The notes below the pieces were generated by a model. That model saw only the letters and a list, made by a program, of their open reading frames with translations, was not told the DNA's origin and did not search any database. DNA of 32,000 bases, taken from Trichodesmium erythraeum IMS101. Its GTDB lineage: Bacteria > Cyanobacteriota > Cyanobacteriia > Cyanobacteriales > Microcoleaceae. The stretch lies in NCBI RefSeq assembly GCF_000014265.1, contig NC_008312.1:5010001-5042000 (forward strand). The letters run 5' to 3'. A program made the position numbers and the translations under genes. Shown here piece after piece: positions 1 through 24,139 of this stretch. Numbering within the stretch: position 1 is the first letter of the stretch; each line of letters opens with the position of its first letter.

Positions 1-945
1 TGCTTCTTCAATTGCCTGATTTAATAATTCGCTAGGTGGAGTTAACTTAGTAATATTAGTTTGAAATTCAACAAAAGCTGATTGATCTTTAATTTCCTCA
101 ATATTTGTAAAAATTTCTGCTAATTTAATTCTGGCTCTAATTGATTTAGGAGTAGGATTAATTTGATTTAAAAAATCAATAATTTCGGGTAAAGTTTCAA
201 TCTGAAATTGTACATAAGTATCTAAATCACCAATTTCTTTAGTAAATTTGACTAGCAAACTAAGATTATTAATAGTTCCTTGAATTTGAACTGATTTGTC
301 AGTAGAAATACTGGCAGCTTCTTGATAATTAGATAAACTTTGATCAACTAGGGTTCGAAGCGCTCGTTCATCTTTTCCACTTCTACGATCGACAGCAATA
401 TTTTGAGCTTGAGAAAGCCTATTGTTACCTAAACTTATCAACAATTGAGCTTTAGTATTGTTAGAATTTACCCACTTATAACTTGCTTCTAATACCTTTT
501 CAGATAACTCCAATTTACCGAACGCCAGCAGTCCATTTCCTAAGATTTGTAACCCCTGAAAATTTAGGCTAGTATTTGATGTTTGAAACTTTTCCAGAAC
601 ATTTTCTAAGTCATTTTCAGTTAAGCGAGCGCATTCTAAATCATTGCCAAATGCTTTTAAGACAGTATTACACGAACGTTCATGAAAACCCAAACTGGTT
701 AAAGCTTGAGCTTGATTAATTTTGGTACCGATAATACCAGTTTGATTTTGATTTTGGCGATAAAGTTCCTCTGCTTTTTGCCAAATTTCTAATGCTGCTT
801 CTGCCTTTCCTTGTTGTAATAATTGAGTTCCTTCTTGAACTAGATGAGTGGCAGAAGATTCAGCTAAAGTGGGAGGTAAAACATTAATTCCCACAGTGAT
901 ACAGAAACTTAATAGAGTAATGGCGAGCAATTTTATGATCTTCAT
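1..945 (-). CDS. Secreted TPR-like repeat protein, first 315 codons only (3' end lies beyond window start). Candidate TPR+CHAT-family partner of the upstream TPS gene.
   Basis: Absent from the supplied ORF track because there is no stop in the window. I checked every plus-strand triplet in phase 1,4,7... from 1 to 945 and found no tta/cta/tca, so the minus frame is open. Start ATG is the complement of 943-945. Translation begins MKIIKLLAITLLSFCITVGINVLPPTLAESSATHLVQEGTQLLQQGKAEAALEIWQKAEELYRQNQNQTG..., a signal peptide followed by helical TPR-like repeats. A CHAT domain would lie outside the window and is not seen. Confidence 0.75.
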   Translation of the reverse strand, partial: MKIIKLLAITLLSFCITVGINVLPPTLAESSATHLVQEGTQLLQQGKAEAALEIWQKAEELYRQNQNQTGIIGTKINQAQALTSLGFHERSCNTVLKAFGNDLECARLTENDLENVLEKFQTSNTSLNFQGLQILGNGLLAFGKLELSEKVLEASYKWVNSNNTKAQLLISLGNNRLSQAQNIAVDRRSGKDERALRTLVDQSLSNYQEAASISTDKSVQIQGTINNLSLLVKFTKEIGDLDTYVQFQIETLPEIIDFLNQINPTPKSIRARIKLAEIFTNIEEIKDQSAFVEFQTNITKLTPPSELLNQAIEEA

Positions 946-1082
946 AATAAATAGATATAAATATCTAAACAATAAAGGGTGTGTTGGGTTTCACTTCGTT
1001 CTACTTTCGGAACTACTTTCAACTACTTTCAACTGGTGTGTCATACTTACCTAAGCTTCATCCCGTCAGTTTACCTCCCTGC

Positions 1083-4000
1083 TCAAAAAGAAAAAGGAGT
1101 AGTAGAAAAAGAAAAATAAAACCCTTCCTCCTGAGCCGTTTTATCTCGCGAGTCCACATCCACTAAAGGAATTCCATAATCTAAGCGCATATTTATCTTC
1201 TCCCATAAATTTACCTGCAACCCCACCCCGGCCGCCGCCAAAGCCTTACTTCCTTCCTCCTCTTTACTATCACTATTCCATGCTACCCCCCCATCAATAA
1301 ACGGCACTACCTGAAATAATCTATTTTTTCCAGATATCCAGGGCACGGGCAACCGCAACTCCACTGTTCCTAACGCTCCATTATCTGTCAAGCGAGTATC
1401 CTGACGATAAGCTCTCACGTTTCGATAACCCCCTAAACCAAACCTTTCCTGAGGCACCAAATCAGATGGAGATAACTGTAGATCTGCTCCCATCAACAAC
1501 AAAGTATTTTTGCCTAACTCACGCACCCATTGTCCTTGACCCCGCCAATAAAAAAATCGACCATCTGGTTCATTACTATTCTTTGTAGCATCCAATATTC
1601 CCAACCCTACATTCAACTGAGAATGAAACGCCAAAACTTGATTTTTTCCCCGTAGTTCATAATCTTGGAAAAGCTGCAAAATTGATAACTTCGTTTCCCC
1701 ATTTTTATCAGCACCCTCAGATAATGGATAATTCTCTCCTAATATAGAAGTTTGACTATCTCGCTTTATTGCAGATAAACCCAAACTTAAAGTTTGCCAG
1801 GGTGTTTGCATTATTGGTTGACTAAATGATAACTTGTAAGTATTTGAATTTGACTCAATATCAAGTCTTTCAAAAGGTGATTCTACCACCTTATTATCTC
1901 TGTGGCGATAAAATAGTTCGATACGACCATTACTGGAGTTCACAGGAATAGCATAAGATACTTCTACCATATCGCTGCCATCAGTATTAGTATAGAGAGC
2001 ACTTAAACTGTCTCCAATACCTGTAACATTTCTATGGTCTACCTCTACCCCTCGCCTGAATGTTCCCACACTTGGTGCCCTGCCATTATTACTGATAGTT
2101 TCTATTTGCCAGGGGTTAGCTGTTTCTATTCTTATGTCTAACCTACTTGTATCTGGGCGGACTCCGGATGAAAGTTCCGCAGATAGAGTTTTGACTAAAG
2201 GGTCTATTTGTAATATTTGTAGGGCAGACAACAACTTTTCTTGATTCAGAGGAGCCGTGGTGGCTTTTTCTAACCGACTTTTGATATAATTTTCATTTAA
2301 TCTACCTTGGATATTGACATTGATTTCACCAACTTTTCCTTCCACTACTCGGAGGGTGACTGTGCCATTTTCAGCCATAGTTTGGGGAGGAATAAATGCT
2401 CCCGATGTGATGTAGTTGTTTTTGGTATAATATTTTGTAATGGCAGTGCGTGCTGCTATGAGTTGAGCAAAGGTAATGGGTTTATTTAGATAAGGTGTGA
2501 GTTGTTGTTGTAGCTCTTGGTTGCTAAATTTTGTGTTACCCTCAAAGTTGAATTGTTTGATAGTAACTTTTAGAGGTTCAGAAGTTGAGGTGGGAATATT
2601 TCCCTTACTGCTTGCGAGTAGATAGGGTGGGGGTTCAAAGGTGTCTAATTGTTCGCAGTTGGGAGGTATTAACCAAGGGGAGGTGGGAGTAGCAGTTTCG
2701 GGGTCAGTGATCAGTTCAATACCTTGAGAATTAGAGCTCCAACCTTGTGCTTCAATGAACTCTTGCTCTGATGGAGTGATAGCTGGTGGAGGAGTAACTG
2801 AGGTTTCTGAGTCTTGCCAGACGTAGGTGGGAGCCAAGGGTTCTTCGAGAGTTGGTGGTAAGCCGCCTCTTCCTGTAATGATGAATTTGCTTTTTTGTCC
2901 TTGTCGGCAAGGGTTTTGGTCGAGGAGGTTGGAGATATCTGGGACGGTATCCTCAAATTCTATCAGTCCGTCACTAGGATCTACATCGGGGGTGTTGATA
3001 TTGACTTCTCCACTGAATGAAGCTCCTAATTCTGAGGTGGCGGTGATGTCGCTTTTGTCTGTTGCTTCAGTACGGAATTCTGTGCCGAATATGCCGGCTG
3101 CGGTGATGTTGACTCGGCCTCCAAATGCCTCGACAGCATTAGCAGAGATGTCGCTGTTGTCTGGGGCAACTAGGTTTTCCGTATTAATGGTAATATTACC
3201 TCCAGTAGCCGTGCCTTCAGAATTAGTGGTGATGTTGCTGTTGTTACGCAGGATGAGGTCTTTATTATTATTGATGGTAATGCTGCCTTCACCTGCTTTG
3301 GTTTCAGCTTTGAGGCTAGCTTGGTTTTCGAGGCGGATGTTGTTGCTGTTTATTATTAAGTCACCTGCAGCTTGTTGGGTAGCAGAGGTGACTATAATTT
3401 CGGCTTCGTTCCGGAGGTTGAGGGTTTCGGTGTTGATGGTTATGGTTCCTGCTGCTCCTGTTGATTCTTTTTTTGCTTCTGCGGTTAAGCTACTGAAGGA
3501 TTTACCATCAGGAGATTTGCCTATTATTTCTATATCTCTAGCAGAGACTATTAAATTCCCTGCATTTCCCTGACCAGAAGTCTTGGTAGAAATAAAAGCT
3601 CCATCTTGCAGCGTTAAACTTTCTGCAGCTTTCACCGTTAAATTCCCTCCGTTACCTTGACCCAAAGTTTCTGCAGACAACATAGTAGAATAACCAATGA
3701 GTATATCTCTAGCAGACACTGTTAAATTCCCTGCATTTCCCTGACTCAAAGTAGTCGTAGAAATAATGGCTCCATCTTGCAGCGTTAAACTTTCTGCAGC
3801 TTTCACCGTTAAATTCCCTCCGTTACCTTGATCAACACTAACACTAACCAAACCACCGAAAAAGTCCCCACCATTCATTTCTATGTCTTTAGCAAACACT
3901 GTTAAATTCCCTCCATTTCCCTGACCCAAAGTAGTCGTAGAAATAAACGCTCCAGGATCCAGCGTTAAACTTTCTGTTTCTACCGTCAACTCCCCGACAT

Positions 4001-5132
4001 TTCCCTTACCGTAAGTGATAAGAATAATAGCACTGTTAGTCTTATTAATGTTTAAAGCTTCTCCTGCTTCGAGCTTATCAGAAAATAAAGACACGTTGAA
4101 TGATGATGTAATATTATTCTCAAAAGGTATTCTACCTTCTATTATAATAGACTTAGATGCTTTAAGAATTGAAGCCCCCCCACCTTCATCGCCTTTAATC
4201 TCTCCTACTATTATTGAAGCATCTCGCACTTTTATCTCTTCTCCTTGAATTTGAAACTCAACTCTTCCACTTCCACTTACATCTATAGAACTCTCTTCAG
4301 ATATTAGAATTTGGCCAAATTTCAGGTTTGGATCATAGCTAAGGGTTTGGTCTTTCGTGATTCCTACTACCCCATTGTGAACACTTCCTAATTCAACACG
4401 TCCTCCAATTGATGTGAGGTTTCCTCCCCTCAAAAATATATCACCACCAACTAACCCTAAGGTTTGGCCTTGGGAAACTTCCAACCCTAGATTCCTGTCC
4501 TCTTTTTCTAATCTTGCTATTCCGTCTTTTGGGTTTAGATAAAAATTTATGTTATGACCTTGACCCTCAACCAAAATACTACCAGGGTTTTCGGGCAACC
4601 TCAACCCAATGGGAACATTAACTGTCAGTAGTGGGGGCGCTTGAGGGTCTGAACTAGCAAATTCAAATCCATTTTTAAATAAGATACTATCGGCAGTAGC
4701 TCCATAGAATGAACCTTGGACATCTAATTTAGCTTCTGGCCCAAAGATTATGCCATTGGGGTTAATGAAAAATAAATCAGCTTTTCCATCTACACCCAAG
4801 GTTCCTAATATGTTAGAGCCATTGTTTCCTGTGACCCGAGTCAGGATATTTTGAACTCCATCAGGGTTGCTAAAGTAAACCCCTCGTCCCTGTTGAATGT
4901 TGAATTCTTGAAAACTGTGGAATAGGTTGGCCCCTCTTTGGGCCCCGCCATCTATGCGATCGCTTTCTATCCCTTTAATATTGATATTCGGTGTGACGAC
5001 AGAATTTTCTTCTCCCAATGTATTATCTGGTTGAAGTTGAGCGATCGCCGATGAAATATCAACCCCAAAATATCCCAGAGTCAAAGATAGCGGAACAATT
5101 CTGAGGAATAGATTTTTGTAAAAAAAAAGCAT
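1083..5132 (-). CDS. Fused two-partner-secretion protein (1349 aa): signal peptide, TPS (haemagglutination-activity) domain, repetitive beta-helix passenger, Pro-rich linker, POTRA, and ShlB/FhaC/HecB-type outer-membrane barrel
   Basis: Single uninterrupted ORF. The N-terminus MLFFYKNLFLRIVPLSLTLGYFGVDISSAIAQ is a signal peptide. TPS hallmarks FSNPDGVQNILTRVTGNNGSNILGTL and FFINPNGIIFG lie at approx nt 4653-5030. GQGN(G/A)GNLTV beta-helix repeats span approx nt 2950-4000. CRQGQKSKFIITGRGGLPP is followed by a P/T/S-rich linker. A POTRA-like segment LKVTIKQFNFEGNTKFSNQEL...VVEGKVGEINV lies at nt 2316-2573. The barrel ends ...FYFSFSTTPFSF with a terminal aromatic beta-signal. Confidence 0.9.
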   Translation of the reverse strand: MLFFYKNLFLRIVPLSLTLGYFGVDISSAIAQLQPDNTLGEENSVVTPNINIKGIESDRIDGGAQRGANLFHSFQEFNIQQGRGVYFSNPDGVQNILTRVTGNNGSNILGTLGVDGKADLFFINPNGIIFGPEAKLDVQGSFYGATADSILFKNGFEFASSDPQAPPLLTVNVPIGLRLPENPGSILVEGQGHNINFYLNPKDGIARLEKEDRNLGLEVSQGQTLGLVGGDIFLRGGNLTSIGGRVELGSVHNGVVGITKDQTLSYDPNLKFGQILISEESSIDVSGSGRVEFQIQGEEIKVRDASIIVGEIKGDEGGGASILKASKSIIIEGRIPFENNITSSFNVSLFSDKLEAGEALNINKTNSAIILITYGKGNVGELTVETESLTLDPGAFISTTTLGQGNGGNLTVFAKDIEMNGGDFFGGLVSVSVDQGNGGNLTVKAAESLTLQDGAIISTTTLSQGNAGNLTVSARDILIGYSTMLSAETLGQGNGGNLTVKAAESLTLQDGAFISTKTSGQGNAGNLIVSARDIEIIGKSPDGKSFSSLTAEAKKESTGAAGTITINTETLNLRNEAEIIVTSATQQAAGDLIINSNNIRLENQASLKAETKAGEGSITINNNKDLILRNNSNITTNSEGTATGGNITINTENLVAPDNSDISANAVEAFGGRVNITAAGIFGTEFRTEATDKSDITATSELGASFSGEVNINTPDVDPSDGLIEFEDTVPDISNLLDQNPCRQGQKSKFIITGRGGLPPTLEEPLAPTYVWQDSETSVTPPPAITPSEQEFIEAQGWSSNSQGIELITDPETATPTSPWLIPPNCEQLDTFEPPPYLLASSKGNIPTSTSEPLKVTIKQFNFEGNTKFSNQELQQQLTPYLNKPITFAQLIAARTAITKYYTKNNYITSGAFIPPQTMAENGTVTLRVVEGKVGEINVNIQGRLNENYIKSRLEKATTAPLNQEKLLSALQILQIDPLVKTLSAELSSGVRPDTSRLDIRIETANPWQIETISNNGRAPSVGTFRRGVEVDHRNVTGIGDSLSALYTNTDGSDMVEVSYAIPVNSSNGRIELFYRHRDNKVVESPFERLDIESNSNTYKLSFSQPIMQTPWQTLSLGLSAIKRDSQTSILGENYPLSEGADKNGETKLSILQLFQDYELRGKNQVLAFHSQLNVGLGILDATKNSNEPDGRFFYWRGQGQWVRELGKNTLLLMGADLQLSPSDLVPQERFGLGGYRNVRAYRQDTRLTDNGALGTVELRLPVPWISGKNRLFQVVPFIDGGVAWNSDSKEEEGSKALAAAGVGLQVNLWEKINMRLDYGIPLVDVDSRDKTAQEEGFYFSFSTTPFSF
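3541..3980. repeat. Intragenic tandem repeat, about 171-180 bp x ~2.5 copies, inside the beta-helix region of the TPS fusion gene
   Basis: ttaaattccctgcatttccctgac starts at 3551 and again at 3722 (period 171). A third variant, ttaaattccctccatttccctgac, starts at 3902. Long stretches are near-identical (ccatcttgcagcgttaaactttctgcagctttcaccgttaaattccctccgttaccttga occurs twice). At protein level the 57-aa unit QGNGGNLTVKAAESLTLQDGA(I/F)IST.. is repeated. Confidence 0.85.
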
Positions 5133-5197
5133 CTTAAGAGTAAAAGTAAATCAACAGTAAGTAAGAACCATAAGTTCTTAACTTCAACATTTACTTA

Positions 5198-5231
5198 GGA
5201 TAACTATTAAAGCCGGATAACTATTAAAGCC
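5198..5231. repeat. Perfect 17-bp tandem duplication (ggataactattaaagcc x2) upstream of the TPS fusion gene
   Basis: Read directly: 5198-5214 and 5215-5231 are identical. Confidence 0.9.
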
Positions 5232-5548
5232 AGTTCCATAAACTCCATGAAAGATGTCCCAAATTATTTTAATTTTCTAAACATTATATGCAAAAACTTA
5301 AAATAAGAAAACTTCAGACTAACTAAAATAACATAATCCTAACCATCAAGATTTCCAGATGGCCTTTTCTTCGTAAAGTAATAAAGTAATTACGAACCAA
5401 CAAATATATAAAAGGTCTAGATACTCTATAAAAGTAGTAACTATGATCAGGACTAAGATCATATTAGAGTCACCTCAAGCAATTCATCCCTCCCAGTTTT
5501 AGGATAGATAAAATCCAACTTACCTAAATAATTTTCTGTAGCCAGGCC

Positions 5549-5577
5549 TTGACTTTTATTAAAAAACGTAGTATAAT
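5549..5577 (+). promoter_or_regulatory. Near-consensus sigma70-type promoter candidate (TTGACT, 17-nt spacer, TATAAT) in ORF-free DNA
   Basis: -35 ttgact at 5549-5554, a spacer of exactly 17 nt (5555-5571), and -10 tataat at 5572-5577. It points toward rseP about 1 kb downstream, with no ORF of 60 aa or more in between on that strand. AT-rich DNA gives many chance -10 boxes, so confidence is low. Confidence 0.3.
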
Positions 5578-6573
5578 TATATCTTACACTTATAAATAAA
5601 CAAAGTATTTATACCAACATAACAAACTAAATAAATTTCCATCAATAACCATTAGCAAAATCAATACAAAAAACCGAAGGTATTAACCTGTTTTTTAATC
5701 TCAAGTCACTCGCACCTAGTTAGAATTGGCAGAACATTTTTTATTGCCTTCGACCAACGAAACCATAGGAGAGACCTTTGGAAGAGCGATCGCCAACCAT
5801 TAACCAGAAAACTCAGATGAATTATAAGATATGCTCGTTTATCGTGATAGCTGAAATTTATGGAACAGAGGGAATTCCTAGCAGGAGTTAAGCTGCTTTC
5901 ACTCTTTGCCTCAAACTAGAAATTTTGATAGTGCTAAACAAGTAATAATTGATCATACTGATGAATGAAATACCAAATTGTACCAATATTATTTTCCACA
6001 AACGACACAAAAGGCAAAGTTTTTTTGTACTAGCCTGCATACCCTTTATCTTAAAGTATTATTGAATCTTTCAATGCCAAGAAATCTTTCCTTTTTCTTT
6101 TCCTACTGCTTGATATCTTTTACTAGGTAAAACAGCACTTAACGCCACAAAAAAATTAGTGTATGCAAGCCTACCTCCTGCAAAGCTACCCCCAATGCAC
6201 AAAAGTAGCTTAGTCAATAAGTTTCTGAGTAGGGTTTTGCAAAATTTTTCCGGCACTGCTGCCCTTAAACCGCTGCTTAACATTATAAATATGACTATTT
6301 TTGACAGTTTTTGAAGATTCACACTTTGAACAGGTCAGCATAGATCAACAACAGTAACTTTTACTCCTCTATTCATAAATCTTGAGCACTACCACCTTTT
6401 TATATTAAAGCCCGTAGAAGGGGTTGAGCTATAAGATAGATAGACCTTATATTTTATGATAAACCATATACCTTATTTATTACTTAATTTATTAGAATTA
6501 ACTCAACTTGAGATGAATTAATGTATAATAAAATTTTAACCGTTTATAGTAGGAAGTTTAATAGGAATAACTC

Positions 6574-7668
6574 ATGTCCGTATTGCTAGCGATCGCAGTT
6601 TTAGGTATTCTAATTGTAGTTCACGAGTTAGGCCATTTTATGGCAGCTCGACTTCAAAACATCCATGTTAACCGTTTTTCCATCGGGTTTGGCCCGGTCA
6701 TCTGGAAATACCAAGGCCCACAAACTGAATATGCACTTCGAGGTTTTCCCTTAGGAGGTTTTGTCGGTTTTCCCGATGATGACCCAGACAGCAAAATACC
6801 CAAAGACGATCCAGACCTATTACGCAACCGCCCAATTTTAGATCGAGCGATCGTTCTCAGTGCAGGAGTAATTGCTAACCTAATATTTGCTTATTTTCTC
6901 TTAGTTACTCAAGTAGGTATTATTGGTGTAGCAGATTTTAACTATGCACCTGGAGTCAAAGTGCCAGAAGTTGCTACAAGTGTTAGTTCTGCTGCCGCTC
7001 GCGCAGGCATTAAGGCAAATGATATTATTTTGTCAGTTGATAACCAACAATTAGGTGCCAACAAAAAAGCTATTAGCACCTTGGTAGCAACTATTCAAAA
7101 TAATCCCAATAGAACTTTGAAGATGGAAATTCAGCGTCAAGAAGAAAAAATATTTCTTGAAGTTACACCAGAATTAGGAGATGATAGCAAAGGTCGTATC
7201 GGTGTACAACTAATTTCCAATGGAGAAATAGTTAGATATCCTACGAAAAATGTTTTTAAAGCTTTGAGCATTGGTGCTGAAGAATTTCAAAAAATAGTTA
7301 TATTGACAGTTCGTGGTTTTTGGCAGCTTATTAGTAATTTCAGTCAGACTGCAGGGAAACTAGCAGGACCTGTTGCCATTGTAGACATGGGAGCAAAAAT
7401 TGCTCAGGATAACGTGGGTGAACTGTTTAAATTTGGCGCATTAATTAGTATTAATTTGGCAGTGATTAATATTTTGCCTTTGCCTGCTTTAGATGGTGGT
7501 CAATTAGCATTTCTAGTGATCGAGGGAGTTAGAGGTAAACCTTTACCACTTCGTATCCAAGAAAATGTCATGCAAACTGGTTTGGTATTGTTATTAGGTC
7601 TAGGAGTATTCCTGATAATTCGGGATACTGCTAATTTAGATGGTGTGCGTTCAATTTTTCAGAGATAA
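6574..7668 (+). CDS. rseP: RIP (site-2) zinc metalloprotease, M50 family, RseP-like with PDZ domain
   Basis: HELGH (HExxH) lies in the first TM helix (VVHELGHFMAARL). The central segment is PDZ-like (AAARAGIKANDIILSVDNQQL). The C-terminal motif NILPLPALDGG is present, and the protein has several hydrophobic segments. Confidence 0.9.
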   Translation: MSVLLAIAVLGILIVVHELGHFMAARLQNIHVNRFSIGFGPVIWKYQGPQTEYALRGFPLGGFVGFPDDDPDSKIPKDDPDLLRNRPILDRAIVLSAGVIANLIFAYFLLVTQVGIIGVADFNYAPGVKVPEVATSVSSAAARAGIKANDIILSVDNQQLGANKKAISTLVATIQNNPNRTLKMEIQRQEEKIFLEVTPELGDDSKGRIGVQLISNGEIVRYPTKNVFKALSIGAEEFQKIVILTVRGFWQLISNFSQTAGKLAGPVAIVDMGAKIAQDNVGELFKFGALISINLAVINILPLPALDGGQLAFLVIEGVRGKPLPLRIQENVMQTGLVLLLGLGVFLIIRDTANLDGVRSIFQR

Positions 7669-7679
7669 GCGTAGAAATA

Positions 7680-7775
7680 ATAGCACTACACAGAAGTCAT
7701 AAATCAGAAGTTATAAGTCATGATAAGTAAATTTGAGCATTTATAAACTTCTGGGCTTTATTTGTGTAGTGCTAT
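7680..7775. repeat. Long imperfect inverted repeat / hairpin (13-bp outer arms plus 5-bp inner stem) starting 12 nt after the rseP stop. Possible terminator or MITE-like element.
   Basis: atagcactacaca (7680-7692) is the exact reverse complement of tgtgtagtgctat (7763-7775). The inner gaagt (7693-7697) pairs with acttc (7747-7751). No T-tract follows the right arm. Confidence 0.55.
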
Positions 7776-8087
7776 AAAATTCAAAGATTAAAAATATTAA
7801 TAGCTAAGGTTTTGATGATTTTGTTGACTACTACACAAATATACAGCAATTTTGAGATATAATTATCTCAGCTCAAAACCAAAACCCAGCAGGAATGTTC
7901 CATGGAAAATCCCTACCGTGGTATGCTAATTATGAAAACCACTTTAATGGTTGAAATATTAATAATATAAGCGTTTTATCTACACCATAGGCATAATATT
8001 TACCTACGGGAGCAAGATACTGTCACTGACAAACCATTAAATATTGACATACCGTACTTTCTTCCTGTTCCTTCTCCATTCCTGACA

Positions 8088-8741
8088 ATGGTAACAACTC
8101 GTAAACATTCACTGAAGCGACAGCGATCGTTAGAATTACTCATTCGTCTCAAGGATCTCTATCCAGATGCGACTTGTACTCTCACTTATAAAACCCCCGT
8201 CCAGTTACTTGTAGCTACTATTCTTTCCGCTCAATGTACTGATGAACGAGTTAATAAGGTTACACCCGCTCTATTTAAAAAGTTCCCGGATGCTCTAGCA
8301 CTGGCAAATGCAGATCTTGAAGAACTAGAAAATTTAGTCCGTTCCACAGGATTTTATCGCAATAAAGCTAAAAATATTCAAAGTGCTTGCCAAATGATTA
8401 TTGATAAGTTCAATTCTCACGTTCCCAAGCAAATGGAACAACTTTTGCAATTACCAGGAGTAGCGAGGAAAACAGCTAATGTTGTTTTAGCTCATGGCTA
8501 CGGAATTATTGTCGGGGTAACAGTAGATACTCATGTTAAACGCTTAAGTCAAAGGTTGGGTTTAACCGAGCATTCCAACCCAGTTAAAATTGAGCGAGAC
8601 TTAATGGAGTTGATACCTCAGCCTGATTGGGAAAACTGGTCAATACGATTAATTTATCATGGTCGGGCAATTTGTAAAGCCAAAAATCCTGCCTGCAATC
8701 AATGTTTATTGGCTGATTTATGTCCAACGGTTGTAGAGTAA
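8088..8741 (+). CDS. nth: Endonuclease III (DNA-(apurinic or apyrimidinic site) lyase / glycosylase)
   Basis: HhH-GPD signature LPGVARKTANVVL, followed by VDTHVKR. The C-terminal 4Fe-4S ligand spacing C-x6-C-x2-C-x5-C is present in CKAKNPACNQCLLADLC. Confidence 0.93.
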   Translation: MVTTRKHSLKRQRSLELLIRLKDLYPDATCTLTYKTPVQLLVATILSAQCTDERVNKVTPALFKKFPDALALANADLEELENLVRSTGFYRNKAKNIQSACQMIIDKFNSHVPKQMEQLLQLPGVARKTANVVLAHGYGIIVGVTVDTHVKRLSQRLGLTEHSNPVKIERDLMELIPQPDWENWSIRLIYHGRAICKAKNPACNQCLLADLCPTVVE

Positions 8742-8840
8742 AAAATTGAGTAATCAAAAAAATTATGGTATTATAATATATTGGGTAAATAAGCTAAAAT
8801 TAAAAATACTAATTATTTTGGAGGAATAAGGTAATTAATC

Positions 8841-9143
8841 ATGGCTAAAAAAAGTATGATCGAGCGTGAGAAAAAACGCAAAAAATTAGTAGAAAAATAT
8901 GCCGAGAAACGTCGAGAACTCAAAGAGCAATTTATGAAGGCAGAAGATTTAGAGCAGAAAATAGAACTTCATCGTCAAATTCAGAGACTACCTCGTAACA
9001 GTGCTCCTAGTCGTGTTAGGAATCGTTGTTGGTTAACTGGACGTCCAAGAGGATTTTATCGGGATTTTGGACTCTCTCGTAATGTCATCCGAGAAATGGC
9101 CCATGAAGGTTTATTGCCAGGAGTTGTGAAGTCTAGCTGGTAG
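8841..9143 (+). CDS. rpsN: 30S ribosomal protein S14 (long, non-zinc form)
   Basis: [20 protein letters not shown]...[41 protein letters not shown] is a classic 100-aa S14. A GGAGG-like RBS (ttggaggaataagg) lies upstream. Confidence 0.95.
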
Positions 9144-9165
9144 TTTCTACCTTTCTGGCCACCCA

Positions 9166-9189
9166 TAGGGGTTTGAGATAAAACCCCTA
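9166..9189. terminator. Hairpin between the convergent genes rpsN and the 109-aa gene (possible bidirectional terminator)
   Basis: taggggttt (9166-9174), loop gagata, then aaaccccta (9181-9189): a 9-bp perfect stem. There is no clear U-tract on either strand. Confidence 0.35.
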
Positions 9190-9343
9190 ATTAAAGGCAA
9201 AAACTTCCCTGAAGCAATAGACTTAGGGCTTACCCAACAGGGCTGAAAGACAAAGTTTCGAAAGAATGAAAAACAATAATTAGGTGAATAAACCTGGTTT
9301 CTTGTTTTGATGGGCAAGTCCGGAAATTGAAACTTTGAATTTT

Positions 9344-9673
9344 CTATTGCCCACAACAACGTTCTATTCCTAGACTATCTAATAGTAAATCACTAACAGC
9401 ATTAGCGATCGCAAACTCCCCATAAAAACTTTGGGAAAAGTCAAAAGCTTGCATTTCTGTAACAATAGCAATTACTAATGATCCTAAATCATTCTCCCCT
9501 TCCATACGGTGGCGAACAAATATTTGAGCTGCTCTGTTGGCAATATCTTCATTCACTTTTTCGGGAATAAATTCTTGATTGAGCCATTTATGTAAGGAAG
9601 TTTTCAACCATTGGCCCTCTTCTTGGGGGTTTTGTGCCGTTGGTAAGGTAACTGCTTTGATTGGTTCTAGCAT
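9344..9673 (-). CDS. Hypothetical protein (109 aa), probably a conserved cyanobacterial protein of unknown function
   Basis: Clean ORF with ordinary composition and codon usage like its neighbours. It is divergent from aat with only a 40-bp gap. I do not recognise a family. The C-terminus is ...LGIERCCGQ. Confidence 0.65.
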   Translation of the reverse strand: MLEPIKAVTLPTAQNPQEEGQWLKTSLHKWLNQEFIPEKVNEDIANRAAQIFVRHRMEGENDLGSLVIAIVTEMQAFDFSQSFYGEFAIANAVSDLLLDSLGIERCCGQ

Positions 9674-9713
9674 AATTTGAAAGTTTATATAGTAAATTGT
9701 TGATAGTATTTCT

Positions 9714-10295
9714 ATGATAGAAGATAGTATTAATTCAATTATACAAGGATATGCTCAGGGCTACTTCCTCATGGCAAATGATGAAGAAGATAGCTTGGGG
9801 TGGTATAGTAGTTATCAGCGAACTTTAATTCCTTTGGATGAAAGATTTCGCTATCCACGGTCACTACGTCGTGCAATTAATCAAAATCGTTTTACTGTTG
9901 CTGTTAATCGAGATTTTGAAGCTGTAGTCAAGGGTTGTGCAGCTAGAGAAACAACTTGGATCTCTGAAGAACTAAAGCAGATTTACAAAAATTTAAATAA
10001 AGTGGGATATGCTTATAGTTTTGAGACTTGGCAAGGAGATGAACTTGCCGGTGGAATTTTAGGAATTGTCATTGGGAGTGCTTTTATTGGAGAGTCAATG
10101 TTTTACAATATTCCAGAAGGGTCAAAGGTGGCGATGGTAAAGTTGGTGGAGCGACTGCGAAAGCGAAAGTTTGTTCTTTTTGATGCTCAGATGAATAACC
10201 CTCACTTGGAAAGATTTGGAGCTTATAGTATCAGTGATAAAAAATATAAAGCACTTTTAAAATATGCGTTAAGTCATGGACGTAGTTTAATATAG
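9714..10295 (+). CDS. aat: Leucyl/phenylalanyl-tRNA--protein transferase
   Basis: [10 protein letters not shown]...[22 protein letters not shown]..., ...[12 protein letters not shown]... and [18 protein letters not shown] match the family's conserved blocks. The length (193 aa) is typical. Confidence 0.9.
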
Positions 10296-10549
10296 CAGGG
10301 AGTAGGTAGAGCTTTTCATGCAACTTTCTCAGGGGAGTAGTAGGAAAAACATTATTCATTTCAATATTTCATTCATAAGTCTATATTCTAATATAATTTT
10401 TTCATTCTGATAATTGCATTTTTTTATATAATCCTATCATACTTTACTTTTTTTATCTCAAAACAAAATTTATACTTAGTAATTGCCAAGGTGTGAGTTT
10501 GAATTCAACTCAAACCCATTAGAGTCGTTGAGAATTAACGGAAAAAAAT

Positions 10550-10590
10550 GGCTTAAGCCCAAAATAGGTTCAGGTTTAAGCCTGCTTTTG
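10550..10590 (+). terminator. Hairpin plus short T-run in the aat-arsJ intergenic region (possible terminator of an unannotated transcript)
   Basis: ggcttaagcc (10550-10559) pairs with ggtttaagcc (10573-10582) over 10 bp with one G-U pair. It is followed by tgcttttg. Confidence 0.25.
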
Positions 10591-10707
10591 AATCCTGAAA
10601 TACTAAAAACCATTAAGAGTAGACCTTTGAATATTTTAAAATTTCCCACACCAAACAACTCTATTATTAGCTTTTCAGATTGATCACCTGATATCAGAAC
10701 TAAAATC

Positions 10708-10741
10708 CTGTAGGGTTTTTTTTGCCAGAAAGCCCCTACAG
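10708..10741 (-). terminator. Hairpin about 118 nt downstream of the arsJ stop (weak terminator candidate)
   Basis: ctgtaggg (10708-10715) is the reverse complement of ccctacag (10734-10741), with an 18-nt loop containing T8 (A8 on the minus strand). The trailing U-tract on the minus strand is weak (gatttta). Confidence 0.3.
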
Positions 10742-10858
10742 TGATTTACCAAAATGAAAACTACTATAAAGTTATTCTAGATAGTAACAAATCTAAACTG
10801 GTCACTTTCTTTACCTTCTCGTAGATATTCAGCCTCCAAATATTCAACCATAGATAAA

Positions 10859-12115
10859 TTAATCTCCAGACCCAGCTTGCCAAGCTATAGCTTTACTAGG
10901 TTTAGCCTCCGGTAACTTTAGAGAAACTAAAGCTGCTCCTAATACAAATAACATGGATACCCACAGACAACCAACCAAACCAAATATTTGATAAACTAAC
11001 CCCGATAAAACTGTACCTGCAAGACGACCACCGGAATTAGCCATATAGTAGAAACCAACATTTAGAGCTACTTTGTCATCATCAGTAAATGCCAATACCA
11101 GGTAGGAATGAACAGCAGAATTAAAAGCAAATACTATACCAAACAACATTAAACCACCAACAACTACCAAATTAGCAGGTAAACCTAATTGTAATGCCAG
11201 AGCGATCACGCAAGGAACAGCAGTCAATGTAAACGTCCAAAATTGGATAGTTTTTGATTGTGGAGGCTTACCAGAACCAAATTTCTGTATAAGAGTCGGT
11301 GCTAAAGATTGAATAATACCATAACCTATGACCCAACAAGCCATAAAACCACCAACTTCATAAAAAGACCAACCCAAAGTACCTTGCAGAAAAACAGGTA
11401 ACCCTACTACAAACCAGACATCTCGCGAACCAAATAAAAAGAAGCGAGCACCAGAAAGAATATTAATTTCCTGACTTTTAGAAAAAAGTTCTTTAAACTT
11501 GACCTTCCTCTTAATTTTGCCCATGTTTTTTGGTAGAATTAAGCCAGTTAACATAATCAAAAATAGTCCTCCCGCCATTATCCACAGAGCATTGACAAAT
11601 CCAAATAATGACAGTAGCGCACTACCTACAAAAAAACCAGCCCCTTTAAGAGCATTCTTGGAACCAGTTAACACAGCTACCCACTTAAATAGAGAGGACT
11701 GAGCATCTTGGGGTACAACTAACCTAATAGCACTTTTAGAGCTCATTTTAGTTAAATCTTTAGCAATTCCAGAAAATGCCTGTGCTACCATTACATAAAA
11801 CACAGCTAACCACTGTACCCAACCTAGGTTTACCCATGAAAGCATAATTAGGGCAAAAATCTGTAACCCAATACCACTGTACAGAGTCACTCTTAATCCA
11901 AGTTGTGAACCTATCCAACCACCGAAAAAATTAGTAAAGATGCCAAAAACTTCATAGAATAAGAATAAAAAGGCTATTTCTAGAGGAGTATAACCAATTT
12001 TGTAGAAGTAAAGTAGCACCAACATTCGCAAAGCACCATCAGTAATGGTGAAACCCCAGTAGGCAAGAGTTACTAGGGCATAATTTCTTAAACTAGCACT
12101 TGTAGTAGAAACCAT
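10859..12115 (-). CDS. arsJ: MFS permease, probable ArsJ (1-arseno-3-phosphoglycerate efflux)
   Basis: 418 aa with about 12 hydrophobic segments, typical of the MFS. It lies 73 bp downstream of a GAPDH gene on the same strand, and an ACR3 gene sits further upstream. This is the arrangement described for GAPDH-ArsJ arsenate resistance. The ArsJ call rests on synteny plus the MFS fold, not on a verified alignment. Confidence 0.75.
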   Translation of the reverse strand: MVSTTSASLRNYALVTLAYWGFTITDGALRMLVLLYFYKIGYTPLEIAFLFLFYEVFGIFTNFFGGWIGSQLGLRVTLYSGIGLQIFALIMLSWVNLGWVQWLAVFYVMVAQAFSGIAKDLTKMSSKSAIRLVVPQDAQSSLFKWVAVLTGSKNALKGAGFFVGSALLSLFGFVNALWIMAGGLFLIMLTGLILPKNMGKIKRKVKFKELFSKSQEINILSGARFFLFGSRDVWFVVGLPVFLQGTLGWSFYEVGGFMACWVIGYGIIQSLAPTLIQKFGSGKPPQSKTIQFWTFTLTAVPCVIALALQLGLPANLVVVGGLMLFGIVFAFNSAVHSYLVLAFTDDDKVALNVGFYYMANSGGRLAGTVLSGLVYQIFGLVGCLWVSMLFVLGAALVSLKLPEAKPSKAIAWQAGSGD

Positions 12116-17939: not shown

Positions 17940-18178
17940 TATAATAATTTTCCTTTATTTAAAAAAGTATAGGGCTATAAGCTAGACAAAAGTGCAAAAT
18001 GCAAAAGTCAAAAATAATTTATGACTGAGTTTAATCATGTAGAAATGTCGATTATCTTTCCTTTCATTGCTAATAGTTATCAGATTTTCAATTATTAATT
18101 ATAGAGTTTCTCAAGTTACTACAGCATATTTATTTTTCTGATTTTCTCTTCTAACCTAAACCCAACTATAAGTTTATG

Positions 18179-18314
18179 TATTAATGCTCTGCTTAGGTCA
18201 GACTTCAGTTATTAAGCAATTAAGTGCATATGCAAAATTATTTACCTATTCTCATTAAACCAATTCCTATTTATTAATACTTAGCTTAGGTCAAACTTTA
18301 GTTATTAAATAATT
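18179..18314. repeat. Two 43-bp direct repeats (36/43 identical, period 93 bp) upstream of the pentapeptide gene
   Basis: tattaatgctctgcttaggtcagacttcagttattaagcaatt (18179-18221) versus tattaatacttagcttaggtcaaactttagttattaaataatt (18272-18314). Confidence 0.8.
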
Positions 18315-18949
18315 TTTATAAAGAGAATAGAATAACTTTTTTGTTCTCTTCAGCTAAATTAATATTAATGATTATTACAGAGCTTTCTATCATTATAAAG
18401 TACAGCTACGCGAATAAGATTCCCACACTACATAATTTTCATTATTTACTCTGTACATCATTTACCCGGAATATCCCTAAATCCACTGCCCTACTCCTCT
18501 GCTTTCTTACTCAAAAAAACATAGAAAAGTTTTGTGAGAAATATCATATAAGACTTGCTGAATATATTTTATGAGTGAGGATAGGAAGCAAAAGAGGTAT
18601 AAAATATTGAAACAAACAGCCAAGGATCGATGGTAATTACAGAAGATGTGGTCTGTAGTAATTTAAATTTTTATGCCCTTAATAGCTAAAAATTGAGGCT
18701 TTTGAGCTATGTAAAGCCAAGAAATTATATATTCTTTCCACACAAAAAGCCCTTAGTAATATTTAAGTAAATATTTTCAGTTTTTTCAGCTTATCCTAAT
18801 TATTTGACCTCAAAAGAAGGCTAATAATTTAGCTTATATACACATCTAATTAATTGGTATAACAAGTTAATATAAAGGAAATACAATTTTTGCAGGATTA
18901 ACCTTCTCGAGTTATCTTAATCCATACCTATTTCCTAAAACAGAAAAAT

Positions 18950-20623
18950 TTACAATGAAATTGTTTTTGTCCATATAACTGATTTATTTCCTAATTGTCT
19001 CCCATGAATTTTGACATTTTTGAGATATTTTGATTGTAAACTAGCAATTTTTTGCTCTACTAGTGGAGTGACAATTTCTGGATTAGGAACCTGTTCTGAT
19101 TCTAAAACAATATGTATATAATCATTTTTCCTACCAGCTATGGCTGTGATACCTTTTTGCTCAAGTAATTGATTAATTATCATAGCCATTGCCTTAGGAT
19201 TTCCTTGAGTTGCTAATTCAATAATTTTTTGTTGATTTTCATCATAAATTTTTGTTTGTTTATATGATTTTTGACTAATAGTATTAGCTGAATTATTGAG
19301 ATTAAGTTTTTTCCTTTCTTCTTTTTCCAATTCCTTGAGAATTTCTTGATATTTTGTATATTTTTCCTGTATATTACTAATCAAATTCCCTAAGGCTGTA
19401 TATTTTAATAATAAACGTTTTTTTTCTGTTTCACCTTGTAAAAAATGATTTAAAGTTTTTTCTAAGGAAATAAATTCCGCTTCTATAGCATCCATTACAA
19501 CATCTACTTTTTTATTGACAATAGTAGATATTTTATCTTCTATCCTGAGTTTTTGTTTGATAGAATCTAAGATATTGTTTCCTCCTATAGCAGGTTTTTG
19601 TTCTTGGGAAATAGGAACTATTTTTTGATTATAAATTAAAGAGTTTTCAAGAGTTTTTTCCTCTGCTTTATTTGTGGTTTCATCAATAATTTTATCTTTG
19701 TAGGCATTAGTTTTTTCAGAGTAAATTATAGAATATTCTTCTGGGGTAAAGCTAATTTTATCTGTAGAGTTTATAGCTGGCAAATTTGTTAGATTTAGCA
19801 GAGTCATATCGTCTTTATCAAAATAACTATTATCCTCCATATTAATTTTTTTTGTATCTAATATTGATGTTTCAAATTTTTCAGCTTCTGCTTGACTTTG
19901 AGGAACTATAATTTCATCTGAATAGCAAAGGTTTAAAGCCTTAATAACTATATCGGCTACTTGGGTATATTCATCTGGGTCTTCAAAATTATTAGCAGTA
20001 GCATATAAAGAAGACTCTAAATCTGTTATAGATAAGCATAAATTAAATATTTGTCTAAGTAAACTATCTAAGTTTTTTGTTCTCAACAATAACCAATCCT
20101 TATTACCAAAATCAAATTGATGTTGTACAGCCGAAAAAATCAGAATTTTTGCCTTTAATGGATTAGTACCCTGCATAATTTTTTCTCGCACATCAAATAA
20201 TTCTCCAGGATCTCTTGGGTATGATTCTTCTACTACTAATTTATTTGTTAAAACGATTTGGTCATCTAAAACAGTAAGACTCCTGTTAGGAATATATTCC
20301 ATAACAGTCGTCTCTTCTTCTTGAGGATATAATTTACCTATACTGTTAATAATTTTTTGTGCTAACAAACTATATTCTGTTTTTTTATTAACTTTAGAAA
20401 CTATCTCACACAATCGAGCATTTAATGAATCTATATTTTCTATTTGATTGTATAACTTTTCTATTAACTTCTTCATATTAACTCTTTCTAACTTGGTTTC
20501 ATTATCCTCCCATACGTTGTCACAAGCCCAATAAATTACTTTCTTTATCCTCATTAAATCTACATCTTTTTCTAATTCTTTAACTATTGTATCTATGAGT
20601 GAAAATGATTCCATAGTTGCCAT
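18950..20623 (-). CDS. Hypothetical protein, 557 aa. Very AT-rich, with an N/K/E/I-rich central region and better-ordered N- and C-terminal modules.
   Basis: It is the only long ORF in a 5.7 kb low-coding block. It is not low-complexity throughout: the N-terminus reads ...RIKKVIYWACDNVWEDNETKLERVNMKKLIEKLYNQ... and the C-terminus reads ...IIELATQGNPKAMAMIINQLLEQKGITAIAGRKNDYIHIVLESEQVPNPEIVTPLVEQKIASLQSKYLKNVKIHGRQLGNKSVIWTKTISL. I recognise no catalytic motif. Confidence 0.75.
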   Translation of the reverse strand: MATMESFSLIDTIVKELEKDVDLMRIKKVIYWACDNVWEDNETKLERVNMKKLIEKLYNQIENIDSLNARLCEIVSKVNKKTEYSLLAQKIINSIGKLYPQEEETTVMEYIPNRSLTVLDDQIVLTNKLVVEESYPRDPGELFDVREKIMQGTNPLKAKILIFSAVQHQFDFGNKDWLLLRTKNLDSLLRQIFNLCLSITDLESSLYATANNFEDPDEYTQVADIVIKALNLCYSDEIIVPQSQAEAEKFETSILDTKKINMEDNSYFDKDDMTLLNLTNLPAINSTDKISFTPEEYSIIYSEKTNAYKDKIIDETTNKAEEKTLENSLIYNQKIVPISQEQKPAIGGNNILDSIKQKLRIEDKISTIVNKKVDVVMDAIEAEFISLEKTLNHFLQGETEKKRLLLKYTALGNLISNIQEKYTKYQEILKELEKEERKKLNLNNSANTISQKSYKQTKIYDENQQKIIELATQGNPKAMAMIINQLLEQKGITAIAGRKNDYIHIVLESEQVPNPEIVTPLVEQKIASLQSKYLKNVKIHGRQLGNKSVIWTKTISL

Positions 20624-20805
20624 AATTTTTTATTCCTGAAGAATCGTTCAAATATTTTACTAATTTTTATAATTCTTGAAATCTTCAATAAATTTGCTGA
20701 TAATTATCAGTTTTATCCAAAAATATTACTGTAATTGCTATCTTTGATTTGCTTCTGATTATAAAACAGAATAAGGCTATTATATAATGATATAATTATT
20801 TAGAT

Positions 20806-20818
20806 AGCATTCAGCTAT
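20806..20818 (+). repeat. AGCATTCAGCTAT short dispersed repeat copy
   Basis: agcattcagctat lies here. Its reverse complement atagctgaatgct is at 27905-27917. Related copies are agcattccgctatcagcagcc at 27649-27669 and agctgatctgtgactactcaatgctta at 20884-20910 (compare gctgatctctgaatgctta at 27915-27933). Confidence 0.7.
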
Positions 20819-20997
20819 TAACCATCCCGCTGCCCTTAAGGACAGAGGTTTAAATGAATACATATTTTAAGATCAAAAGCAATAGCTGATCTGTGACTAC
20901 TCAATGCTTAGTAAGTCGCTTTGCCAAAGTCAAAATTCATTAACTTCACAATAATAACTGTAATAACTGTAAATAATCTTGTCAAAAACGCTTTGAT

Positions 20998-23056: not shown

Positions 23057-24139
23057 TTGTACAATAGCAATAAAAAAGGAAATATCGTGAGATTAATCAT
23101 CATATTTTTATTATATTTTTTCCTAGTTGGACAAAATTCAGCTTTCGCCGTCTACAAAGTTGATGGAGAATTTATAGTGAATAGTTGTCAAGCTTACACA
23201 AGTATCAAAAAGAAAAGCGAACCTGTCACTCTTGAGCCAGGAAAAGTGTACCAAGTATTAGGACAAAATAAAAAATCTGGAGATTATTTTTCTATAAAAG
23301 TAGGTAAACAAAATAAATGGATCAACAAAAACTGTGGTGAATTTAATCCTAGTGGGCAAAGAGCCTATTATGAAAGTAGAAAGTTTGGTGAATTTAATCC
23401 TAGTGGGCAAAGAGCCTATGAAAGTAAAAGTAGCTATAAAAGTGAAAGTAGCTATGAAAAAAGAAGCCTAACAGAAAAAAACAAGACTATAGCAAATTGC
23501 CCTGCTCAAGGTTGTGCAAGGAAGTATGTACTTGCTATTAGCTGGCAACCCAGTTTTTGTCAGACAAGGCAATACATCCCTGAATGTATTTCCCAAACGA
23601 CAGATCGTTACGATGCAAATAACTTTACTTTACATGGTTTGTGGCCTGACAAACTTACCTATTGTGGAGTGTCTAATCAAGATATAAACAATGATAAGCA
23701 GAGAGAGTGGGATGATTTACCACGTCTAAATTTGGATCAAGAGACTACCTCTGAATTAGCAATAGTGATGCCTGGTGTGCAGTCTTATTTACATCGCCAC
23801 GAATGGACTAAACATGGTACTTGCGATGGTCGAGATGAGGATACTTACTACGATGTTTCTATAGATTTATTGAATGAAGTTAATGCTTCGGAAGTACAAG
23901 ACTTGTTCACAGAAAATATTGGTAAAAGAATTACTCAGTCTCAAATTGAAACAGCTTTTGACAATTCTTTTGGAAAAGGGGCAGGTCAAAGTGTCAAGAT
24001 TAAATGTAACGGTGGGTTAATAAGTGAACTGCAAATTAAAATGCGAAGACCTCTAGTAGGGGAAAAATTAAGGGATGTTTTGATACCGACAAGTGGAAGT
24101 TCTTGCAGTAGTGGCATTGTTGATCCTGTAGGTTTTTGA
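23057..24139 (+). CDS. Secreted ribonuclease T2 family protein with an N-terminal extension (SH3-like segment plus duplicated linker)
   Basis: CAS I motif FTLHGLWPD and CAS II motif LHRHEWTKHGTC are both present. A signal peptide (...RLIIIFLLYFFLVGQNSAFA) is present. The track start is TTG at 23057. The in-frame GTG at 23087, preceded by aaaggaaatatc, is the more likely start. Confidence 0.9.
   Translation: MYNSNKKGNIVRLIIIFLLYFFLVGQNSAFAVYKVDGEFIVNSCQAYTSIKKKSEPVTLEPGKVYQVLGQNKKSGDYFSIKVGKQNKWINKNCGEFNPSGQRAYYESRKFGEFNPSGQRAYESKSSYKSESSYEKRSLTEKNKTIANCPAQGCARKYVLAISWQPSFCQTRQYIPECISQTTDRYDANNFTLHGLWPDKLTYCGVSNQDINNDKQREWDDLPRLNLDQETTSELAIVMPGVQSYLHRHEWTKHGTCDGRDEDTYYDVSIDLLNEVNASEVQDLFTENIGKRITQSQIETAFDNSFGKGAGQSVKIKCNGGLISELQIKMRRPLVGEKLRDVLIPTSGSSCSSGIVDPVGF
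23336..23419 (+). repeat. In-frame 51-bp tandem duplication with a perfect 33-bp core inside the RNase T2 gene
   Basis: ggtgaatttaatcctagtgggcaaagagcctat at 23336-23368 is identical to 23387-23419. At protein level GEFNPSGQRAY occurs twice, followed by SSYKSESSYEK. Confidence 0.92.

Follow-up and report, generated by a model that had tools for sequence, protein, structure and literature searches.

A single-chain two-partner secretion system encoded beside a predicted exported CHAT protease gene in Trichodesmium erythraeum IMS101

The stretch of DNA analysed here, referred to as the window, is 32,000 nt from Trichodesmium erythraeum IMS101 (positions 5,010,001–5,042,000 of NC_008312.1, RefSeq assembly GCF_000014265.1). 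Near one end it contains a gene that is a single-chain two-partner secretion (TPS) system, in which a complete cyanobacterial TpsA, a linker of ~25 aa and a complete TpsB are encoded by one open reading frame (ORF). Together with the predicted CHAT protease gene downstream, this gene makes up a two-gene unit that represents, in fused form, the tpsA-tpsB-CHAT module widespread in cyanobacteria. We regard the architecture and identity of the fused protein as virtually certain. The features of the unit, in window coordinates, are as follows.

1083..5132, reverse strand: fused tpsA-tpsB gene, 1349 aa; uninterrupted ORF with its stop codon at 1083–1085
5040..5132, reverse strand: Sec signal peptide, aa 1–31 (MLFFYKNLFLRIVPLSLTLGYFGVDISSAIA, followed by QLQPD); read from the sequence, with the cleavage site predicted
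4317..5042, reverse strand: TPS secretion domain, aa 31–272; Pfam PF05860 (E 1.6e-53) and TIGR01901
2988..4316, reverse strand: right-handed beta-helix shaft, aa 273–715; AlphaFold model m0beb452de5b3, Foldseek and motifs
2643..2987, reverse strand: TpsA C-terminal module (CTM), aa ~716–830; alignment with standalone TpsA C-termini
2568..2642, reverse strand: fusion junction and linker with EPPPYLL, aa 831–855; comparison with standalone TpsB N-termini
2121..2567, reverse strand: two periplasmic POTRA domains, POTRA1 at aa ~856–942 and POTRA2 at aa ~943–1004; Pfam and AlphaFold
1086..2120, reverse strand: 16-stranded TpsB/Omp85-type beta-barrel, aa ~1005–1349; Pfam ShlB, AlphaFold and Foldseek
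946..1082, reverse strand: 137 nt spacer that separates the CHAT gene from the fused gene; sequence and terminator scan
1..945, reverse strand: 5′ part (315 codons) of a predicted gene for an exported TPR-CHAT protease, truncated at the window edge; orthologue similarity

The 1349 aa product is identical in sequence to T. erythraeum IMS101 ABG52378.1 (UniProt Q10ZE6), and the single uninterrupted ORF for passenger and translocator that was noted in a preliminary description of this DNA was confirmed. The RefSeq version of the protein, WP_052845818.1, is 1333 aa and starts at a TTG, codon 17, which lies 16 codons inside the ORF (window 5085–5132, reverse strand), and the basic n-region of the signal peptide is thereby lost. 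The ATG at 5132, used in GenBank ABG52378.1, leaves the signal peptide intact, and conservation of the N-terminus in the orthologue P0006 (MLHFYKNFFLRI) supports this start. Type Vb secretion is defined by separate passenger and transporter polypeptides from two genes; here there is one ORF, in which Pfam profiles for the TPS domain, POTRA_2 and ShlB are all matched.

The first half of the protein has the hallmarks of a TpsA, namely a Sec signal, a TPS domain with an NPNGI-type motif and an extended right-handed beta-helix. The signal peptide includes a basic n-region, a hydrophobic core and an AxA/Q site, and the family consensus after the variable N-terminus is A-x-A-Q-I-V-P-D. The TPS domain had been recognised from its NPDG and NPNGI blocks, and both the PF05860 match and a motif scan (NPDG at aa 89, NPNGI at aa 124) support this; the NCBIfam model adhes_NPXG (TIGR01901) matched aa 71–148. 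In the AlphaFold model of aa 1–830 (pLDDT 79), an all-beta helix extends from aa 31 to ~715, mostly with a pLDDT above 90, and contains a low-confidence insert in the shaft at aa 336–365. Five GN(G/A)GNL rungs of ~29 aa each are found at aa 405–522. After the TPS domain the beta-helix is ~440 aa long (aa 273–715), not ~600 aa as had been estimated. The top Foldseek matches to the passenger are all TpsA proteins (EtpA, HMW1, HxuA, HpmA and FHA), and the fold of the TPS region resembles the secretion domains of the same five.

The segment that follows the shaft has no Pfam or NCBIfam match. Previously, it had been described as an FIITGRGGLPP segment with a Pro/Thr-rich linker. The segment is present, but alignment revealed that it is not a linker and is instead the conserved CTM of standalone cyanobacterial TpsA. 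In the window protein, the CTM consists of DPSxGL, C742, F.ITGRGGLPP (GRGGLP at 754), a Pro/Thr-rich spacer, an EAQGW..G.IEL hairpin and C826, and the family pattern is DPSxGLVxLP...Cys1...SxFxITGRGGLPP...variable Pro/Ser spacer...(I/V)EAQGW..G.(I/V).L...Cys2. C742 and C826 (codons 2907–2909 and 2655–2657), which bracket the CTM, are the sole cysteines of the 1349 aa protein. Among 179 proteins carrying a near-full-length CTM, exactly two cysteines are present in the CTM of 177, with a spacing of 74–127 aa (median 97 aa), and 157 have no cysteine elsewhere in the mature passenger. The POTRA-barrel part is cysteine-free in 62 of 66 fused proteins. In standalone TpsA (n=87), Cys2 is located a median of 3 aa from the C-terminus. 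As the pair is invariant in exported proteins of ~1,350 aa that are otherwise free of cysteine, this census points to a C742–C826 disulfide.

At the N-terminus of standalone TpsB relatives, a signal peptide is followed by a Pro-rich region, the end of which, directly before POTRA1, is LPPPEELL. The EPPPYLL of the fused protein is the remnant of this LPPPEELL, and the TpsB signal peptide is gone. Because the entire CTM and the pre-POTRA EPPPYLL have been kept and a second signal peptide is absent, we conclude that a complete tpsA was joined to a 5′-deleted tpsB. The linker from Cys2 to POTRA1 is 16–93 aa in 64 fused proteins, with a median of 29 aa.

The second half of the protein has the two POTRA domains, the 16-strand barrel and the Omp85 L6 and FxDxG motifs that characterise TpsB. 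POTRA_2 (PF08479) was matched at aa 857–932 (E 6.5e-21) and ShlB (PF03865) at aa 995–1306 (E 5.9e-24). The preliminary description had identified a POTRA module, which the PF08479 match upholds, but the count differs, as AlphaFold model m99fc4a0d2455 includes two beta-alpha-alpha-beta-beta units (pLDDT 80–90) rather than one. Sequence matches to the POTRA region include CdiB (6wim) and the TpsB4 POTRA structure 2mhj. The AlphaFold model of aa 730–1349 (pLDDT 69) contains the two POTRAs and 16 long strands, and the closest folds to the C-terminal half are CdiB (6wim, E 2e-24; also 6wil) and FhaC (4ql0, E 1.7e-21; also 4qky), so the predicted structure of the linker-POTRA-barrel region and the Foldseek results agree with TpsB. 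A ShlB-type barrel ending in Phe, as originally proposed, is consistent with the PF03865 match, the 16 modelled strands and a C-terminal beta-signal that ends ...TPFSF. The inner-wall motif is FIDGG1278, and the L6 motif, VRAY1239, has Ala in place of the Gly in the family consensus RGYRQD.

Single-base errors easily fuse related ORFs, and a gene of this kind might be two genes joined by a sequencing error or by a recent unselected mutation. Such cases were encountered among the relatives. P0075 (2353 aa; TPS, ShlB, TPR and CHAT) was considered as a functional triple fusion and rejected, as its barrel does not include the last strand and the frame jumps to the CHAT start, MARKR, at a 46 nt overlap; it is a chimera of tpsB and CHAT created by a frameshift. 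The closest recovered orthologue of the window gene (L001:7089-11084, 79% identity), which is from a metagenome-assembled genome (MAG), is broken within the TPS domain into ORFs at 7089–7784 and 7824–11084, and this split is a MAG sequencing error or a pseudogene. For the window gene, the chance that the fusion is an artefact or a pseudogene is negligible. The IMS101 genome is finished, the TpsB signal peptide has been cleanly deleted, the hallmark motifs are all intact, and the same in-frame junction is found in many independent assemblies. Nucleotides 2550–2950, where an assembly join had been raised as a concern, contain no frameshift or join: the protein is identical to ABG52378.1, and the junction is read through in Okeania, Dapis, Oscillatoria and many others.

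The TPS, POTRA and ShlB architecture is present in ~45 of the 120 best homologues, among the matches listed, and the fused homologues are from Trichodesmium, Okeania, Dapis, Oscillatoria, Laspinema, Phormidium, Geitlerinema and Baaleninema. When the C-terminal 620 aa were used in an exhaustive profile search of 1.84 billion 50%-identity representatives, 3,594 TpsB-like clusters were returned at E ≤ 1e-30. The full-length profile matched ~16 long proteins, at least 14 of which, from several oscillatorian genera, are complete TPS, CTM and POTRA/barrel chains, and there are a few truncated fused clusters in addition to these. Thus, the fusion is real, recurrent and rare, with a frequency of ~0.5% of TpsB-like clusters. 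In a rough neighbour-joining tree of the POTRA and barrel region, drawn with no support values, the fused proteins fall into at least two groups with split ones between them, which suggests more than one fusion event. Other long TpsB-like representatives, including P0177, P0192 and P0227, were rejected as fusions because they have no TPS domain; their N-terminal extensions of 350–950 aa are without a Pfam domain.

The gene downstream of the fused gene starts at the ATG at 945..943 and encodes a signal peptide (MKIIKLLAITLLSFCITVGINVLPPTLA). It had been described as a signal-peptide TPR gene on the same strand after a 137 nt gap. The gap, strand and signal peptide are as described, but Pfam found no TPR and no other domain in the 315 aa inside the window, and the TPR is seen in the orthologue. 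The window part is 66% identical over 316 aa to the N-terminus of the 845 aa product of L001:11352-13889, which adjoins the closest recovered orthologue of the fused gene on its downstream side and includes TPR_12 and CHAT (E 7e-63). As the gene leaves the window, the CHAT and TPR assignment is based on this 845 aa orthologue. The catalytic His (H.ATHG) and Cys (LSAC.TA) are kept in all 38 full-length CHAT orthologues, and an N-terminal hydrophobic export or anchor segment is likewise present in 38/38. The CHAT partner has no significant sequence match to solved structures. A terminator scan found no terminator-like hairpin between the two genes on their strand, which argues weakly for co-transcription. 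The spacer includes ~2.5 copies of a tandem repeat, GAAAGTAGTT, at ~1001–1030 (reverse strand).

The context of the nearest relatives of the POTRA-barrel half was surveyed at 80 loci using home-made hidden Markov models (HMMs) for TPS, CTM, POTRA plus barrel, and CHAT. A CHAT gene was found in 31 of the 32 loci that hold tpsA and tpsB and are long enough to judge. This bears out the pairing of ShlB-like and TPR-CHAT genes that the preliminary description had noted, and it extends to the fusions: in the five loci with single-ORF fusions, CHAT is next in all five. The order tpsA>tpsB>CHAT, with abutting or overlapping ORFs, was seen in 14 loci and tpsB>tpsA>CHAT, with one to three copies of tpsA, in 12. 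A further 12 loci have tpsB>tpsA cut by a contig end, and a few have only tpsB and CHAT. As the ORFs in the 14 tpsA>tpsB>CHAT loci abut or overlap, we trace the fusion to this gene order. In many loci (L004, L026, L028, L030, L036, L037, L041, L058, L074, L077 and L079), the CHAT ORF, with a conserved MARKR start, overlaps the 3′ end of tpsB by 46 nt, which suggests translational coupling of tpsB and CHAT there; in the window there is a 137 nt gap instead. One typical cyanobacterial tpsB-tpsA pair, 47% identical to the query barrel, is on a contig labelled 'Actinomycetota bacterium MAG69' (L019) that is probably a mis-binned cyanobacterial contig.

From these features we derived a mechanism in which the protein exports itself, is tethered via a disulfide-closed CTM and is processed by CHAT, and which, taken as a whole, we consider to have an even chance of being right. 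Sec would move the precursor over the inner membrane and BAM would insert the barrel. The N-terminal TPS domain would then dock onto the POTRAs of its own chain, and the beta-helix would thread out through the barrel and fold on the trichome surface. Translocation would halt at the CTM, a disulfide-closed loop of ~85–100 aa for which the pore would be impassable. The CTM would remain in the periplasm beside POTRA1, with the conserved DPSxGL segment that precedes Cys1 sitting in the pore. As in an autotransporter, the fibre would end up on the surface with a covalent link to a transporter that is used once. Export in cis with tethering is the part of this scheme that we consider probable.

The placement of the CTM follows from the length of the tether. 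As few as 16 residues separate Cys2 from POTRA1, which is periplasmic, so Cys2 must also be periplasmic, and if it is bonded to Cys1 then the whole CTM would be. There are topological precedents for this placement. In structures of FhaC (2QDZ and 4QKY), the pore is traversed by the N-terminal H1 helix and its linker, which connect the surface with POTRA1, and FhaB has a C-terminal prodomain that remains periplasmic up to its removal by proteases. That a disulfide-closed loop cannot pass the TpsB pore makes the CTM a candidate stopper, a role to which we assign slightly less than an even chance. Leo et al. 2012 (PMC3297439) summarise the finding that secretion of FHA is blocked when it is fused to the cholera toxin B subunit, which contains a disulfide.

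The short tether also bears on whether the barrel might work in trans, exporting free TpsA paralogues encoded elsewhere or passengers that belong to neighbouring molecules, so that the fused proteins would be daisy-chained or would share transporters. POTRA-TPS recognition is intermolecular in all type Vb systems that have been studied, and up to three TpsA are encoded per TpsB in split relatives of the fused gene. For the type Vd protein PlpD, the title of one paper (PMC11116518) refers to homodimers in the outer membrane. However, a tether of 16–30 aa between Cys2 and POTRA1 gives little reach to another pore, and there is no standalone TpsA gene within the window. We consider secretion in trans improbable.

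In the proposed mechanism the periplasmic TPR-CHAT protein would be the third component, and would most probably recognise and cut the CTM or the linker, so releasing or turning over the fibre. It would be exported to the compartment of the CTM and is the obvious candidate to bind and cut it. Such a cut would also clear the channel in split loci, in which up to three TpsA depend on a single TpsB. Processing of the CTM by CHAT is put forward tentatively, and we would not be surprised to see it fail. Clan CD peptidases remove C-terminal sorting signals in other systems, with PorU acting on the C-terminal domain of type IX secretion system (T9SS) substrates and GPI8 on the GPI signal. Common to these and to the module described here are a C-terminal module in exported paralogues and a dedicated caspase-fold peptidase encoded alongside. 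However, the systems are unrelated in sequence, and the idea that CHAT cuts or transfers the CTM serves only as a working analogy. An undescribed three-component variant of type V secretion, in which a stopper CTM anchors the fibre in the TpsB pore, a dedicated CHAT protease frees the fibre and reopens the channel, and the fusion is the single-use extreme, is rather unlikely as we see it.

Processing could also take a different course. The fused protein could be a polyprotein precursor in which one signal peptide co-delivers the two halves, and a periplasmic protease, possibly CHAT, severs the linker C-terminal to Cys826, either ahead of barrel assembly or while it proceeds. The products would be an ordinary TpsA and an ordinary TpsB that work as a classical type Vb pair and are able to turn over. 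The whole TpsA CTM has been kept up to the residue where standalone TpsA end and a protease gene is always adjacent, both of which fit this explanation, and the apparently repeated origin of the fusion from abutting tpsA>tpsB suggests that fusion changed little in function. Cleavage of PlpD from its barrel has been reported (Leo et al. 2012, PMC3297439). However, the linker is short (16–93 aa), shows little conservation between clades and has no recognisable common cleavage motif, CHAT is equally conserved in split loci where such a cut would be unneeded, and the processing is itself a prediction. We regard a polyprotein as unlikely, if well worth keeping in view.

Several observations weigh against the proposed mechanism or the module on which it is built. 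The CHAT gene of this genome has been read only up to the window edge. Localisation, processing and the disulfide are predictions from sequence and models, and the CTM has low pLDDT in both AlphaFold models with the exception of the hairpin. GR/GG in the CTM was considered as a CHAT cleavage site and found weak, as the Arg is not invariant and varies to K, Q, S, G, N or T. There is no confident H1-type plug helix before POTRA1 in the model, and cyanobacterial standalone TpsB are Pro-rich there; gating may therefore differ from that of FhaC. One locus (L068) has tpsB>tpsA with no CHAT in 5.8 kb, and at ~30 loci tpsB is an orphan that has neither a TPS nor a CHAT gene within 10 kb. The orphan tpsB loci include L007–L011, L013, L014, L017, L022, L024, L025, L032, L035, L043–L046, L048–L050, L056, L057, L070, L072, L076, L078 and L080, and in many of them a long Pro-rich N-terminal extension (100–290 aa) precedes POTRA1. 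Finally, CHAT enzymes elsewhere are conflict or cell-death effectors, and the role of CHAT here may therefore be unrelated to maturation.

If so, the module might serve defence or programmed death. The surface beta-helix would sense phage, grazers or neighbours, and CHAT would be an effector that is activated by the CTM and degrades envelope proteins rather than a maturation enzyme. Caspase-fold proteases, including CHAT, are commonly effectors of conflict systems in multicellular cyanobacteria; the catalytic dyad of CHAT is strictly conserved, and in the loci recovered the module occurs solely in cyanobacteria that are filamentous or colonial. However, neither the fused protein nor its CHAT partner matched a PADLOC defence model, and the module is without NTPase, sensor or immunity genes. 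The tight coupling to tpsB and the presence of several tpsA per CHAT look like a secretion and maturation operon, and we judge a defence role quite unlikely.

Comparison of the fused protein with classical type Vb systems (FhaB/FhaC, CdiA/CdiB, HMW1/HMW1B and ShlA/ShlB) revealed that they share the TPS domain with NPNG motifs, the beta-helix, two POTRAs, a 16-strand barrel, and the L6 and FxDxG motifs. They differ in that here a single polypeptide carries a single signal peptide, an H1 plug helix was not detected, the region before the POTRAs is Pro-rich and the CTM is bracketed by Cys, and in that a dedicated exported CHAT is found instead of SphB1, CtpA or DegP. With type Vd proteins (PlpD of Pseudomonas aeruginosa and FplA of Fusobacterium nucleatum), the fused protein shares a passenger that is N-terminal to a POTRA-bearing 16-strand Omp85/TpsB-like barrel, and release by cleavage is possible in both. 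However, type Vd passengers are patatin-like lipases without a TPS domain and most have one POTRA, whereas here there are a TPS domain, a beta-helix and two POTRAs. Pfam found no patatin domain in the fused protein, and the fused barrel groups with cyanobacterial TpsB. The type Vd-like topology with a TpsA passenger that the preliminary description had proposed is borne out by the HMMs, the two AlphaFold models and Foldseek. Type Va autotransporters have a 12-strand barrel without POTRA; the barrel here has 16 strands and is preceded by two POTRAs, and there is no match to the autotransporter beta-domain.

The fusion itself had already been reported. Arnold, Zeth & Linke 2010 (PMC2878562) described two-partner secretion systems of T. 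erythraeum, such as Tery_3487, that are fused to a beta-helical substrate and include two POTRAs and a barrel, and noted that there were no functional data for the cyanobacterial proteins. In the type Vd section of their review, Leo, Grin & Linke 2012 (PMC3297439) cited Tery_3487 as a two-partner secretion fusion with a typical beta-helical passenger. These are the only mentions of Tery_3487 in the literature searched, and with these two reports we class the fusion in T. erythraeum as already known; the novelty implied in the preliminary description does not hold. The likeness to Tery_3487 extends to the organism, an N-terminal hemagglutinin-like beta-helical domain, two POTRAs, a barrel and a single gene, and the window protein is either Tery_3487 or a paralogue in the same genome. 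Tery_3486, the neighbour of Tery_3487, has been described as a 60% GC mRNA (PMC4143802), and no 60% GC island flanks the fused gene inside the window. The two papers give the fusion one or two sentences and a figure footnote, in which the CTM, the Cys pair, a CHAT partner and the distribution do not appear. The searched literature held no functional or experimental characterisation of the fusion and nothing on the CTM, its two cysteines or the link to CHAT. Hence, the CHAT module and the CTM are apparently undescribed. In later reviews type Vb is presented as always having separate chains, and Heinz & Lithgow 2014 missed the fusion, as they report the TpsB barrel to have no additional domains.

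The remaining genes in the window are unrelated housekeeping genes. No Rfam match was found in the whole window, and promoter-like and terminator-like sites are no commoner than in shuffled sequence. A 1.4 kb AT-rich gap (5133–6573) with no convincing ORF separates the fused gene from a divergent gene for an M50 (RseP-like) protease. The best promoter-like site of the region (TTGACT-17-TATAAT, 11/12 matches) is at 5549–5577 on the forward strand in this gap, which could correspond to one of the many non-coding transcripts of T. erythraeum (PMC4143802). The region from 18000 to 21000 is 27.5% GC, compared with 35–40% elsewhere, and a 557 aa ORF at 18950–20623 (reverse strand) has no Pfam match. 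The product of 23057–24139 (forward strand, TTG start) has an RNase T2 family domain at aa 157–327, and the N-terminal ~150 aa that precede it matched no domain.

The fusion forms a natural link between two-partner secretion and autotransporters, the very point for which it was cited in 2012. A permanently linked chain of substrate and transporter would provide structural studies of threading through TpsB/Omp85 pores with a stalled intermediate that is ready to use. If the three-component reading is true, the fusion would be a natural trapped translocation intermediate of two-partner secretion. The module, with its CTM and exported CHAT, offers a testable function for the large set of uncharacterised CHAT proteins in cyanobacteria. 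It also suggests how filamentous, colony-forming cyanobacteria such as Trichodesmium may anchor and shed surface fibres, which would be relevant to colony formation and particle capture.

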